Positions 1-14,148 of a DNA stretch of 14,148 bases are shown in pieces. Made by a program: the position numbers and the translations under genes. This DNA comes from a virus. Numbering within the stretch: the stretch's first letter is position 1; each line of letters opens with the position of its first letter. Below the pieces are notes generated by a model. That model did no database searches and was not told the origin of the DNA. It saw only the letters and a program-made list of their open reading frames with translations. The stretch is taken from UHGV virus genome UHGV-1727423; one strand, written 5' to 3'.

Positions 1-392
1 CATCCCGTCAGGCGAGCCAGATGTTTCTGTGCTGGCTGGAAGAGGCCATCGTTCGCCGCGTGGTGACGTTACCTTCAAAAGCGCGCTTCAGCTTTCAGGA
101 AGCCCGCAGTGCCTGGGGGAACTGCGACTGGATAGGCTCCGGTCGTATGGCCATCGATGGTCTGAAAGAAGTTCAGGAAGCGGTGATGCTGATAGAAGCC
201 GGACTGAGCACCTACGAGAAAGAGTGCGCGAAACGCGGTGACGACTATCAGGAAATTTTTGCCCAGCAGGTCCGTGAAACGATGGAGCGCCGTGCAGCCG
301 GTCTTAAACCGCCCGCCTGGGCGGCTGCGGCATTTGAATCCGGACTGCGACAATCAACAGAGGAGGAGAAGAGTGACAGCAGCGCTGCGTAA
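1..392 (+). CDS. B: Portal protein, C-terminal fragment (5' end lies outside the window)
   Basis: Open frame from the window edge to TAA at 390-392. Sits immediately upstream of, and overlaps by 20 nt, the C protease start, as in lambda B/C. Assigned by synteny only. Confidence 0.7.
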   Translation, partial: SRQASQMFLCWLEEAIVRRVVTLPSKARFSFQEARSAWGNCDWIGSGRMAIDGLKEVQEAVMLIEAGLSTYEKECAKRGDDYQEIFAQQVRETMERRAAGLKPPAWAAAAFESGLRQSTEEEKSDSSAA

Positions 393-1721
393 TCTCCCGC
401 ATATTGCCAGCATGGCTTTTAATGAGCCGCTGATGCTTGAACCCGCCTATGCGCGGGTTTTCTTTTGTGCGCTTGCAGGCCAGCTTGGGATCAGCCGCCT
501 GACGGATGCAGTATCCGGCGACAGCCTGACTGCCGGAGAGGCACCCGCGGCGCTGGCGTTATCCGGTGATGATGACGGACCACGACAGGCCCGCAGTTAT
601 CAGGTCATGAACGGCATCGCCGTGCTGCCGGTGTCCGGTACGCTGGTCAGCCGGACGCGGGCGCTGCAGCCGTATTCGGGAATGACCGGTTACAACGGCA
701 TTATCGCCCGTCTGCAACAGGCTGCCAGCGATCCGATGGTGGACGGCATTCTGCTGGATATGGACACACCGGGCGGGATGGTGGCGGGAGCATTTGACTG
801 TGCTGACATCATCGCCCGTGTGCGAGACATAAAACCGGTATGGGCGCTGGCCAACGACATGAACTGCAGTGCAGGTCAGCTGCTTGCCAGCGCCGCCTCC
901 CGGCGTCTGGTCACGCAGACCGCCCGGACAGGCTCCATCGGCGTCATGATGGCTCACAGTAATTACGGTGCTGCGCTGGAGAAACAGGGCGTGGAAATCA
1001 CGCTGATTTACAGCGGCAGCCATAAGGTGGATGGCAACCCCTACAGCCATCTACCGGATGATGTCCGGGAAACACTGCAGTCCCGGATGGATGCAACCCG
1101 CCGGATGTTTGCACAGAAGGTGTCGGCATATACCGGCCTGTCCGTGCAGGCTGTGCTGGATACCGAGGCTGCAGTGTACAGCGGTCAGGAGGCCATTGAT
1201 GCCGGACTGGCTGATGAACTTGTGAACAGTACCGATGCGATCACCGTCATGCGTGATGCACTGGATGCACGTAAATCCCGTCTCTCAGGAGGGCGAATGA
1301 CCAAAGAGACTCAATCAACAACTGAGTCTCTTTGGAGACTCAATCAACAACTGTTTCAGCCACTGCTTCGCAGGCTGACGTTACTGGCGTGGTGCAAGCG
1401 ACGGAGGGCGAGAACGCCAGCGCTGCGCAGCCGGACGTGAACGCGCAGATCACCGCAGCGGTTGCGGCAGAAAACAGTCGCATTATGGGGATCCTCAACT
1501 GTGAGGAGGCTCACGGACGCGAAGAACAGGCATGCGTGCTGGCCGAAACCCCCGGTATGACCGTGGAAACGGCCCGCCGTATTCTGGCCGCAGCACCACA
1601 GAGTGCACAGGCGCGCAGTGACACTGCGCTGGATCGTCTGATGCAGGGGGCACCGGCACCGCTGGCTGCAGGTAACCCGGCATCTGATGCCGTTAACGAT
1701 TTGCTGAACACACCAGTGTAA
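373..1721 (+). pseudogene. C: Capsid assembly protease C (S49/ClpP-like) with nested scaffold Nu3 frame; frameshifted by a 29-bp insertion
   Basis: GTG start at 373 preceded by AGGAGG (361-366). Translation reads MTAALRNLPHIASMAFNEPLMLEPAYARVFF..., matching lambda gpC as recalled. Frame is intact to ~1324, then shifts and stops at 1438-1440. The original frame resumes (ORF 1332-1721, ...TQSTTVSATASQADV...NDLLNTPV) and ends at TAA 1719-1721. Span 373-1721 is 1349 bp, i.e. 1320 bp (lambda C length) plus 29. Nu3 internal start would be ATG 1087 (MDATR...). Confidence 0.8.
1302..1353 (+). repeat. Quasi-palindromic duplication: 19-bp direct repeat (1306-1324 and 1335-1353) separated by 10 bp (1325-1334) that is the reverse complement of 1302-1311
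   Basis: Read directly: CAAAGAGACTCAATCAACAACTG / AGTCTCTTTG / GAGACTCAATCAACAACTG. The 10-bp spacer AGTCTCTTTG is the exact reverse complement of CAAAGAGACT at 1302-1311. Confidence 0.9.
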
Positions 1722-1730
1722 GGGATGTTT

Positions 1731-2063
1731 ATGACGAGCAAAGAAACCTTTACCCATTACCAGCCGCTGGGCAACAGTGACCCGGCTCATACCGCAACCG
1801 CGCCCGGCGGATTGAGTGCGAAAGCGCCTGCAATGACCCCGCTGATGCTGGACACCTCCACCCGTAAGCTGGTTGCGTGGGATGGCACCACCGACGGTGC
1901 TGCCGTTGGCATTCTTGCAGTTGCTGCTGACCAGACCAGCACCACACTGACGTTCTACAAGTCCGGCACGTTCCGTTATGAGGATGTGCTCTGGCCGGAG
2001 GCTGCCAGCGACGAGACGAAAAAACGGACCGCGTTTGCCGGAACGGCAATCAGCATCGTTTAA
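1731..2063 (+). CDS. D: Head decoration protein
   Basis: ATG at 1731 (second ATG of ORF 1725-2063) after AGGGA. 110 aa, [12 protein letters not shown]...GTAISIV, same length and near-identical to lambda gpD as recalled. Confidence 0.92.
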
Positions 2064-2080
2064 CTTTACCCTTCATCACT

Positions 2081-11414: not shown

Positions 11415-11431
11415 TGAAAAACGTTTATGTG

Positions 11432-11452
11432 AAACCGCCTCCGGGCGGTTTT
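11432..11452 (+). terminator. Terminator-like hairpin in the I-J intergenic region (AAACCGCC-TCCG-GGCGGTTT then T)
   Basis: 8-bp perfect stem (11432-11439 with 11444-11451), 4-nt loop, T-rich 3' side. Lies in the 59-bp gap upstream of the J Shine-Dalgarno GAGGAA. Confidence 0.35.
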
Positions 11453-11473
11453 GTCGTTTATGGAGCGTGAGGA

Positions 11474-14148
11474 ATGGGTAAAGGCAGCAGTAAGGGGCAT
11501 ACTCCGCGCGAAGCGAAGGACAACCTGAAGTCCACGCAGTTGCTGAGTGTGATCGATGCCATCAGCGAAGGGCCGATTGAAGGTCCGGTGGATGGATTAA
11601 AAAGCGTGCTGCTGAACAGTACGCCAGTGCTGGACAGTGAGGGGAATACCAACATCTCCGGCGTCACGGTGGTGTTCCGGACCGGTGAGCAGGAGCAGAC
11701 ACCGCCGGAGGGATTTGAATCCTCCGGCTCCGAGACGGTGCTCGGTACAGAAGTGAAATACGACACGCCGATCACCCGGACCATCACGTCGGCAAACATT
11801 GACCGACTGCGTTTTACCTTCGGCGTGCAGGCACTGGTGGAAACCACCTCAAAGGGGGACAGGAATCCGTCGGAAGTCCGCCTGCTGGTTCAGATACAGC
11901 GTAATGGTGGCTGGGTGACGGAAAAAGACATCACCATTTAGGGCAAAACCACCTCGCAGTATCTGGCCTCGGTGGTGGTGGGTAACCTGCCGCCGCGCCC
12001 GTTCAATATACGGATGCGCAGGATGACGCCGGACAGCACCACAGACCAGCTGCAGAACAAAACGCTCTGGTCGTCATACACCGAAATCATCGATGTGAAA
12101 CAGTGCTACCCGAACACGGCACTGGTCGGCGTGCAGGTGGACTCGGAGCAGTTCGGCAGCCAGCAGGTGAGCCGTAATTATCATCTTCGCGGGCGCATTC
12201 TGCAGGTGCCGTCGAACTATAACCCGCAGACGCGGCAATACAGCGGTATCTGGGACGGAACGTTTAAGCCGGCATACAGCAACAACATGGCCTGGTGTCT
12301 GTGGGATATGCTGACCCACCCGCGCTACGGCATGGGGAAACGTCTTGGTGCGGCGGATGTGGATAAATGGGCGCTGTATGTCATCGGCCAGTACTGCGAC
12401 CAGTCAGTGCCGGACGGCTTTGGCGGCACGGAGCCGCGCATCACCTGTAATGCGTACCTGACCACACAGCGCAAGGCGTGGGATGTGCTCAGTGATTTCT
12501 GCTCGGCGATGCGCTGTATGCCGGTATGGAACGGGCAGACGCTGACGTTCGTGCAGGACCGACCATCAGATAAGGTGTGGACCTATAACCGCAGTAATGT
12601 GGTGATGCCGGATGATGGCGCGCCGTTCCGCTACAGCTTCAGCGCCCTGAAGGACCGCCATAATGCCGTTGAGGTGAACTGGATTGACCCGAACAACGGC
12701 TGGGAGACGGCGACAGAGCTTGTTGAAGATACGCAGGCCATTGCCCGTTACGGTCGTAATGTTACGAAGATGGATGCCTTTGGCTGTACCAGCCGGGGGC
12801 AGGCACACCGCGCCGGGCTGTGGCTGATTAAAACGGAGCTGCTGGAGACGCAGACCGTGGATTTCAGCGTGGGTGCCGAAGGGCTTCGCCATGTGCCGGG
12901 TGATGTTATTGAAATCTGCGATGATGACTATGCGGGGATCAGCATCGGCGGGCGCGTGCTGGCTGTGAACAGCCAGACCCGGACGCTGACGCTCGACCGT
13001 GAAATCACGCTGCCATCCTCCGGTACCACGCTGATAAGCCTGGTTGACGGAAGTGGCAATCCGGTCAGCGTGGAGGTCCAGTCCGTCACCGACGGCGTGA
13101 AGGTAAAAGTGAGCCGTGTTCCTGACGGCGTTGCCGGATACAGCGTATGGGGGCTGAAGCTGCCGACGCTGCGCCAGCGCCTGTTCCGCTGCGTGAGTAT
13201 CCGTGAGAACGATGACGGCACGTATGCCATCACCGCCGTGCAGCATGTACCGGAAAAAGAAGCCATCGTGGATAACGGGGCGCACTTTGACGGCGACCAG
13301 AGCGGCACGGTGAATGGTGTCACGCCGCCAGCGGTGCAGCACCTGACTGCCGAAGTCACCGCAGACAGCGGGGAATATCAGGTGCTGGCGCGCTGGGACA
13401 CGCCGAAGGTGGTGAAGGGGGTGAGCTTTATGCTTCGCCTGACCGTGGCAGCGGATGACGGCAGTGAGCGGCTGGTCAGCACGGCCCGGACGACGGAAAC
13501 CACATACCGCTTCACGCAACTGGCGCTGGGGAACTACAGGCTGACAGTCCGGGCGGTAAATGCGTGGGGACAGCAGGGCGATCCGGCATCGGTATCGTTC
13601 CGGATTGCCGCACCGGCAGCGCCGTCTCGGATTGAGCTGACACCGGGCTATTTTCAGATAACCGCCACGCCGCATCTTGCGGTTTATGACCCGACGGTAC
13701 AGTTTGAGTTCTGGTTCTCGGAAAAGCGGATTACCGATATCAGGCAGGTTGAAACCACAGCCCGCTATCTTGGTACGGCGCTGTACTGGATAGCCGCCAG
13801 TATCAATATCAAACCGGGCCATGATTATTATTTTTACGTTCGCAGTGTGAACACCGTTGGCACATCGGCATTCGTGGAGGCTGTCGGTCGGGCGAGCGAT
13901 GATGCGGAAGGTTACCTGGATTTTTTCAAAGGCAAGATAACCGAATCTCATCTCGGCAAGGAGTTGCTGGAAAAAGTCGACCTGACGGAGGATAACGCCA
14001 GCAGACTGGATGAGTTTTCGAAAGAGTGGAAGGACGCTAACGATAAATGGAATGCCATGTGGGGCGTCAAAATTGAGCAGACCAAAGACGGCAAACATTA
14101 TGTCGCGGGTATTGGCCTCAGCATGGAGGACACGGAGGAAGGCAAGCT
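11474..14148 (+). pseudogene. J: Tail tip attachment / host specificity protein J, N-terminal ~890 codons (3' end outside the window), interrupted by an in-frame TAG at 11939-11941
   Basis: ATG at 11474 after GAGGAA. MGKGSSKGHTPREAKDNLKSTQLLSVIDAISEGPIEGPVDGLKS.... Frame is open to VTEKDITI, then TAG, then the same frame continues with no further stop to the window end ([32 protein letters not shown]...DTEEGK) by manual translation. In lambda as recalled the interrupted codon is Lys (AAG). Confidence 0.8.

Follow-up and report, generated by a model that had tools for sequence, protein, structure and literature searches.

The virus genome UHGV-1727423, a stretch of 14,148 nucleotides (nt) that is referred to here as the window and to which all positions refer unless stated otherwise, raises the question of how a lambda-type head and tail module can be interrupted in the head gene C and in the tail tip gene J, and what kind of element such a module represents. 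The initial annotation had offered three readings without choosing among them, namely a recently inactivated prophage, a laboratory-type conditional-defective phage, and errors of sequencing or assembly. Our data favor the first of these and speak against the other two. The window is very probably the head-tail block of a temperate E. coli phage, wild and of the lambda family, whose mutational decay has only just begun, and the element, as judged from its relatives, is almost certainly resident as a prophage. In the proposed course of events, an A-to-T transversion would first have turned codon 156 of J into an amber, with loss of the tail-tip protein on which tail assembly starts, and a template switch would later have placed 29 bp into C on this J-amber haplotype. 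The resulting +29 frameshift would spare the S49 protease domain of gpC and replace the last 122 amino acids (aa) that are common to gpC and Nu3, and the prophage alone would then make neither correct proheads nor tails.

Megablast searches of 50,697 phage records showed that the window runs collinear with phage lambda (lambda ~4045-18176), beginning at the B 3′ end and reaching roughly 79% of the way into J. It is covered to 100% by lambda and laboratory hybrids at 96.9-97.0% nucleotide identity, and phage 2H10 matches it over its full length at 97.8% identity. The gene map was transferred from the annotated regions of 2H10 and lambda h434 imm21, and intactness was checked by aligning the window, translated in its three forward frames, with each lambda protein. 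The lambda protein set aligned in the order B, C/Nu3, D, E, FI, FII, Z, U, V, G/GT, H, M, L, K, I and J. The C-terminus of B, the genes D, E, FI, FII, Z, U, V and G, the T frame, and the genes H, M, L, K and I were all full length and free of stops. This alignment of all genes bears out the initial claim that the module carries exactly two inactivating lesions, one in head gene C and one in tail gene J, and is otherwise intact. The features of the two interrupted genes are as follows.

373 to 1440, plus strand: gene C (S49 head protease fused to a scaffold domain), frameshifted, with 317 native codons followed by 38 out-of-frame codons, 355 aa versus 439.
1087 to 1089, plus strand: internal ATG of Nu3 (codon M239 of C), placed by coordinate transfer from lambda Nu3.
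1325 to 1353, plus strand: lesion 1, a 29-bp insertion made up of 10 nt of reverse-complemented adjacent sequence, AGTCTCTTTG, and a 19-nt direct repeat, GAGACTCAATCAACAACTG.
1301 to 1335, no strand assigned: perfect 13-bp inverted repeat resulting from the insertion, its arms (1301-1313 and 1323-1335) separated by a 9-nt loop.
1306 to 1353, plus strand: 19-nt direct repeat, whose copies lie at 1306-1324 and 1335-1353 (repeat finder).
1354 to 1721, plus strand: stranded native C-terminal frame of C/Nu3, 122 aa of the scaffold part, out of frame with the C start; gene callers report a 110-aa remnant at 1389 to 1721.
11474 to 14148, plus strand: gene J (tail tip and host specificity), first 891 codons, running off the window, with codon 156 as its sole stop.
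11939 to 11941, plus strand: lesion 2, an amber TAG in place of AAG (K156), midway through the J FNIII-A domain.

The C frameshift had been described as non-suppressible, and the loss of frame was confirmed. The lesion is not a slip of one nucleotide, but a structured, templated insertion of 29 bp. BLAST alignments to intact relatives split at window positions 1324/1335 with a 19-nt overlap on the subject. The wild-type junction consists of CCAAAGAGACTCAATCAACAACTG followed directly by TTTCAG, while in the window CCAAAGAGACTCAATCAACAACTG is followed by AGTCTCTTTG, then GAGACTCAATCAACAACTG, and only then TTTCAG. The insertion lies after C codon 317, adds a net 29 nt, and leads into a new frame that stops at 1438-1440; C accordingly aligns to lambda in its own frame for residues 1-319 only and in another frame for the rest. 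The Pfam Peptidase_S49 domain at aa 150-297 is intact and lies upstream of the insertion, and the 110-aa C remnant had no Pfam match. Lambda Nu3 is the 201-aa, in-frame C-terminal product of C that starts at an internal methionine, here M239. Since Nu3 starts at Met239 (window 1087), the insertion also costs Nu3 the same 122 C-terminal residues. With a net gain of 29 nt the C frame is not correctable by a single shift, and no slippery or recoding signal was found at the insertion.

The anatomy of the insert suggests how it may have been formed. Positions 1323-1335 reproduce 1301-1313 exactly in reverse complement, and the junctions share TG (1323-1324) and G (1335). Folded as single-stranded DNA, the new hairpin has a free energy of -13 kcal/mol (z = -6.8) versus -0.4 kcal/mol for the wild-type stretch, in which no pre-existing inverted repeat or quasipalindrome was found. 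We infer from this anatomy a two-step snap-back template switch. A nascent 3′ end terminating in CTG would have snapped back so that its TG paired with the CA at 1312-1313, 9 nt upstream, and the snapped-back strand would have copied about 11 nt of its own sequence. The end would then have rejoined the original template at one shared G, 19 nt behind its point of departure, thereby re-copying 19 nt. In E. coli, inverted repeats are an established site of template-switch mutagenesis (PMC7202029). The insertion shares with quasipalindrome template-switch mutations (PMC7202029) an insert templated inversely from adjacent DNA, a perfect hairpin, and microhomology at the junction. It differs from them in that the site had no pre-existing imperfect palindrome and in that the event also re-copied 19 nt, and in these respects it resembles a snap-back templated insertion more closely than the correction of a quasipalindrome. 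This clean snap-back signature in natural DNA is the only feature of the window that is even mildly notable.

The second lesion was found as had been described, with TAG at 11939-11941 as codon 156 of J. The codon is AAG in 2H10, lambda and the intact relative L011, and the change to TAG is an A-to-T transversion. All 891 J codons within the window align to lambda J, and only this one is a stop. The amber falls at positions 73-75 of the 126-position FNIII-A_GpJ profile, that is, inside the domain and not at its boundary. Lambda genetics suggests that the functions of both C/Nu3 and J would be lost. C, Nu3 and J are all classed as essential in lambda (literature compiled in PMC10695390), and J is the one late gene whose essentiality was confidently assigned by a CRISPRi study (PMC10695390).

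An amber in an essential tail gene is the classic type of laboratory allele, and this raises the question of whether the window comes from a conditional-lethal phage of the laboratory (an amber mutant stock or vector), either directly or as a contaminant. Like the classical lambda amber mutants (Jam, Cam), the window has a single UAG in an essential structural gene, suppressible in principle by supD/E/F. Unlike them, it has a natural backbone and a transversion allele that is known from metagenomes, and the amber is joined with a frameshift that cannot be suppressed. The backbone is 96.9-97.0% identical to lambda and laboratory hybrids, with 366 mismatches over 12.8 kb to a laboratory lambda hybrid (BLAST), but 99.7-99.9% identical to wild E. 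coli prophages. The latter, L011-L013, are intact relatives from draft E. coli genomes that share the same H protein and have a C of 439 aa and a J of 1132 aa. The haplotype of the window is that of wild E. coli prophages (such as those in GCA_014186595.1 and GCA_000460075.1) and of the gut isolates 2H10 and 2G7b, in which it differs from lambda. Classical base-analogue and hydroxylamine ambers are transitions, whereas AAG-to-TAG is a transversion. A stock with a second lesion beyond suppression would be of no use, and the carriers of the alleles are metagenome and draft-genome assemblies. We consider a laboratory origin to be extremely improbable, and the earlier suggestion of a laboratory-type conditional-defective phage is not upheld.

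Both lesions are real alleles and not sequencing errors, as the exact truncated products recur in other assemblies. The exact 355-aa C product is present on two gut-metagenome scaffolds of the European Nucleotide Archive (ENA), L003 and L004 (WENC17-1_SAMN08366149 and QINN14-1_SAMEA2581893), both of which are 99.9% identical to the window and carry the same 29 bp at the DNA level; in L003, the FII call is missing at a scaffold N-gap. The exact 155-aa J product is present on seven contigs from 3 NCBI and at least 3 ENA assemblies (the latter including ERZ1745475, ERZ27271708 and ERZ27239872), and all seven have TAG at codon 156. The literature, searched with the NCBI assembly and WGS accessions of these amber carriers, yielded no publication. 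The amber carriers include L005-L010, and in L006 and L007 the gene is otherwise open to the normal stop after codon 1132. Two J anomalies were seen near window ~13901-13987, an 11-bp tandem duplication in L005 (~12425-12445) and a 77-nt gap in L008 (3226-3228). Both lie near contig ends and represent assembly-end artefacts or, alternatively, J decay that has gone on 3′ of the amber. The clusters of truncated C and J products contained only contig-end partial proteins and no informative names.

These recurrences bear directly on the suggestion that one or both lesions are sequencing or assembly artefacts. The insertion holds a hairpin, a structure that library and assembly artefacts can yield, many assemblies break about 40-60 nt downstream of the insertion site, and the window has two odd, private C-to-A changes. 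However, the identical 29-bp insertion was found in two other assemblies from different samples and the identical amber on seven other contigs. In addition, we reason that a de Bruijn assembler cannot create a novel 29-bp junction that is absent from the reads. An artefactual origin is therefore very unlikely, and this part of the initial annotation was contradicted by the exact 355-aa C in two and the exact 155-aa J in seven other contigs.

Outside of these few contigs, the lesions were not encountered in the large reference sets. A 70-nt query across the insertion matched 4,394 related places in 5,426 complete E. coli genomes, and at none of them did the match extend over the junction; the amber was not matched at 100% identity among 8,445 E. 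coli places and 99 phage records (71-nt query). The 50,697 phage records likewise contained neither lesion. Exact-pattern scans of GTDB representatives, IMG/VR and JGI metagenomes gave no match to either the insertion junction or the amber context. The reading as a recently inactivated prophage is supported by intact relatives that are few substitutions away over many kb, by the absence of the lesions from thousands of copies, and by the intact state of the other genes.

Comparison with close relatives, which had been proposed as a way to date the two mutations, was informative. The contig L005 (GCA_027679565.1) carries the J amber beside a C of the full 439 aa, and between window positions 1474 and 10063 it departs from the window at two window-private bases only. 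This combination on a near-identical haplotype makes it most likely that J was hit first and that the C insertion arose later, on the amber haplotype. As for age, L007 (amber) and L011 (intact) show the same differences from the window over 4.2 kb except for the amber and one single-nucleotide difference at 10540, and this near-identity indicates that the amber is young on that background. Between the window and its intact relatives, most differences fall into two clusters, one within K (10227-10308) and one within the 3′ half of J (13726-14134), and only four substitutions lie in the first 10 kb. Such clustering in K and J is typical of recombination patches.

A further possibility is that the interruptions are tolerated or programmed, through read-through of UAG by a suppressor tRNA, a J made in two pieces, or selection for a protease-only gpC. 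In every carrier where contig ends do not disturb the reading, J is open for all remaining codons; the protease domain of C is spared, and another prophage has an independent stop at C codon 314. All of this might be expected under such a model. The stop at codon 314 is an ochre (CAA to TAA, Q314) in L024 (Logan SRR7140553_279, 7175-8494), which belongs to a different lambda-like prophage with an H of 853 aa, and it lies three codons upstream of the window insertion. That it lies so close is explained by ascertainment, because the query was the 110-aa remnant open reading frame (ORF), which is called only with a break nearby; the coincidence at codon 314 thus does not speak for a programmed break. 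Moreover, the amber cuts a domain in half, the insertion lacks a recoding signal and, at +29, is beyond the reach of one shift, both alleles are vanishingly rare among thousands of homologous copies, and the Rfam scan of the window gave neither a tRNA nor any other family at gathering thresholds. Hardly any weight can be given to a tolerated or programmed interruption.

A hotspot of breaks in C was also considered and rejected. In L028 (5324-5333) the apparent break proved to be a scaffold N-gap, and the junction there is wild type; the contigs L025-L027 and L029-L031 simply start inside C, and L024 alone has a true independent lesion. Many independent short-read assemblies break or have a gap inside C a few tens of bases 3′ of the insertion site (window ~1356-1388). 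These assembly breaks probably mark a mosaic boundary in C, where the protease part, conserved across co-resident lambdoid prophages, meets the variable scaffold part.

In terms of its setting in E. coli, the module is common. A match was present in 4,783 of 5,426 complete genomes, with at least 80% coverage in 3,084, at a median of 3 and a maximum of 14 places per genome, and 16,446 of the 16,512 places were chromosomal. The closest complete-genome copy (98.2%) belongs to a full-length prophage at the DLP12 locus of E. coli S10 (NZ_CP010229.1 136900-185029, L017). This prophage locus lies between emrE/ybcK and appY/ompT, with genes that include ybcK-ybcO, rusA, quuD and essD/rrrD/rzpD, and the prophage looks like the complete counterpart of the DLP12 remnant at the same locus in K-12. 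One of the seven closest complete-genome modules, that of E. coli 05-3629 (NZ_CP027373.1, L018 2089-3115), has a frameshifted major capsid gene according to its RefSeq annotation and is otherwise intact, and another top-matching module (H50) contains an insertion sequence (IS) element. Single or double lesions in otherwise intact lambda-type modules are a regular sight. Like the defective lambdoid prophages of the O157 Sakai Sp pool (PMC2669165) and DLP12 of K-12, the window has morphogenesis lesions, and co-resident relatives could complement or recombine with it. Its decay is at the earliest stage, however, with two point-like lesions and no deletion or IS in 14 kb, whereas DLP12 has lost the whole module and the Sakai prophages are multiply defective.

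The abundance of related modules also qualifies the earlier expectation that no infectious particles would be released. This would hold for the prophage alone, on the strength of the gene functions known from lambda, but it does not hold in general, as co-resident prophages can complement, package and transfer defective lambdoid prophages, including those with head defects, in O157 Sakai (PMC2669165), and an E. coli genome holds a median of 3 and up to 14 related modules. The element may be defective but mobile and dependent on helpers, with gpC/Nu3 and gpJ supplied in trans by co-resident lambdoid prophages, a reading that is compatible with the early decay of a resident prophage. The number of related modules per genome, the presence of the amber allele on 7 contigs with two J backbones, and the Sakai precedent for complementation and packaging of head-defective prophages (PMC2669165) all point in this direction. 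The same data would result from clonal spread of one host lineage together with gene conversion between resident prophages, however, and the contigs L009 and L010, short and named in MEGAHIT style (k141_...), may be chimeric. Neither lesion was found in virion-derived sequence in the IMG/VR scans. On balance, we regard helper-dependent mobility as unlikely. It is still more doubtful that the J amber marks a helper-dependent passenger element in which the C insertion would be a further step to satellite-like dependence and no dead end.

Several observations weigh against early decay of a resident prophage as we have described it, or against parts of it. Host flanks are absent from the window and from every lesion-bearing contig. 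The window also has neither an att site nor an immunity region, and the prophage state is accordingly read from relatives. Both lesions were seen together in the window only, as L003 and L004 stop before J. The independence of the two insertion samples is plausible, but both come from Chinese gut cohorts and one assembly pipeline. The order in which J was hit first is drawn from L005 and parsimony. The amber is also present on at least two J bodies, that of the window and that of L016, the latter in L009 and L010. In these two contigs, the first 600 nt of J, with the amber, are followed from nt 601 on by an L016-type body that has 2-6 differences to L016 versus 50-60 to the window. Either this J arose by true recombination or the short metagenome contigs are chimeras, and if it is genuine, the amber would be somewhat older than "very recent". 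Finally, two C-to-A differences, 6 nt apart at positions 2820 and 2826 of E, are private to the window, with C in all six comparators that cover the site (L003, L004, L005 and L011-L013), and could be either real private changes or sequencing noise. The change at 2820 is a conservative D234E and that at 2826 is synonymous, and neither is an obvious lesion; an exact look-up of the E protein with D234E found no record.

The remaining genes of the module are listed below.

1 to 392, plus strand: 3′ end of the portal gene B, identical to the lambda B C-terminus at 128 of 129 residues; the ORF spans 21 to 392 and overlaps the C start by 20 nt.
1731 to 2063, plus strand: gene D (head decoration), intact, 108 of 110 residues identical to lambda D.
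2119 to 3144, plus strand: gene E (major capsid), intact by lambda protein alignment, with the window-private D234E (2820) and synonymous change (2826).
3174 to 3581, plus strand: gene FI, intact by lambda protein alignment.
3593 to 3946, plus strand: gene FII, intact by lambda protein alignment.
3958 to 4536, plus strand: gene Z, intact by lambda protein alignment.
4533 to 4928, plus strand: gene U, intact, 131 of 131 residues identical to lambda.
4936 to 5676, plus strand: gene V (tail tube), intact by lambda protein alignment.
5692 to 6530, plus strand: genes G and G-T (tape-measure chaperones), by lambda protein alignment, with the -1 slippery heptamer GGGAAAG at 6090-6096.
6523 to 9072, plus strand: gene H (tape measure), 849 aa, intact by lambda protein alignment.
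9069 to 9398, plus strand: gene M, intact by lambda protein alignment.
9398 to 10096, plus strand: gene L, intact by lambda protein alignment.
10102 to 10845, plus strand: gene K (JAB/NlpC-P60), open, 247 aa, by the ORF table and lambda alignment, with a haplotype patch at 10227-10308.
10743 to 11414, plus strand: gene I, intact by lambda protein alignment.

The window shares with the lambda late operon its gene order, gene sizes, overlaps and G-T slippery site at 97% nucleotide identity, and differs from it in the 29-bp insertion in C, the J amber at codon 156, and an H protein that is 4 aa shorter. The lambda-like lengths, overlap-coupled junctions and slippery site that had been noted earlier were all recovered from the ORF coordinates and the alignment. 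Overlapping junctions were found at B/C, Z/U, T/H, H/M and M/L. The heptamer GGGAAAG occurs once in the window, at the homologous position at the end of G, and the T frame is open to 6530; a single occurrence is not significant by count alone, as 1.73 are expected. The H protein is 849 aa versus 853 in lambda, an in-frame length variant common to phage 2H10 and hundreds of E. coli assemblies, and the exact H protein of the window is on record in 295 blocks of the assembly collection.

The patch in K at 10227-10308 differs from L011, L012, L005 and L007, while L006 agrees with the window. It contains a 1-nt deletion at 10267 that is offset by a 1-nt insertion at 10273, and K remains open; from its sequence, the patch looks like a short recombination tract. 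A 510-aa antisense ORF within J (12566-14098, minus strand) was considered as a gene and rejected as a compositional artefact, since the antisense stop-free stretches of lambda, 2H10 and L011 are even longer and the GC content at third codon positions of J is 0.71.

In summary, the window is a new instance of a well-known process and introduces no new biological system or question. For lambda-family prophages, it offers a clean, dated snapshot of the first steps of decay, with two lesions whose order can be resolved on a haplotype that is otherwise like that of functional relatives. It also calls for caution in annotation, as a module such as this one would be scored as intact by its gene content even though it would, on its own, be unable to make virions.

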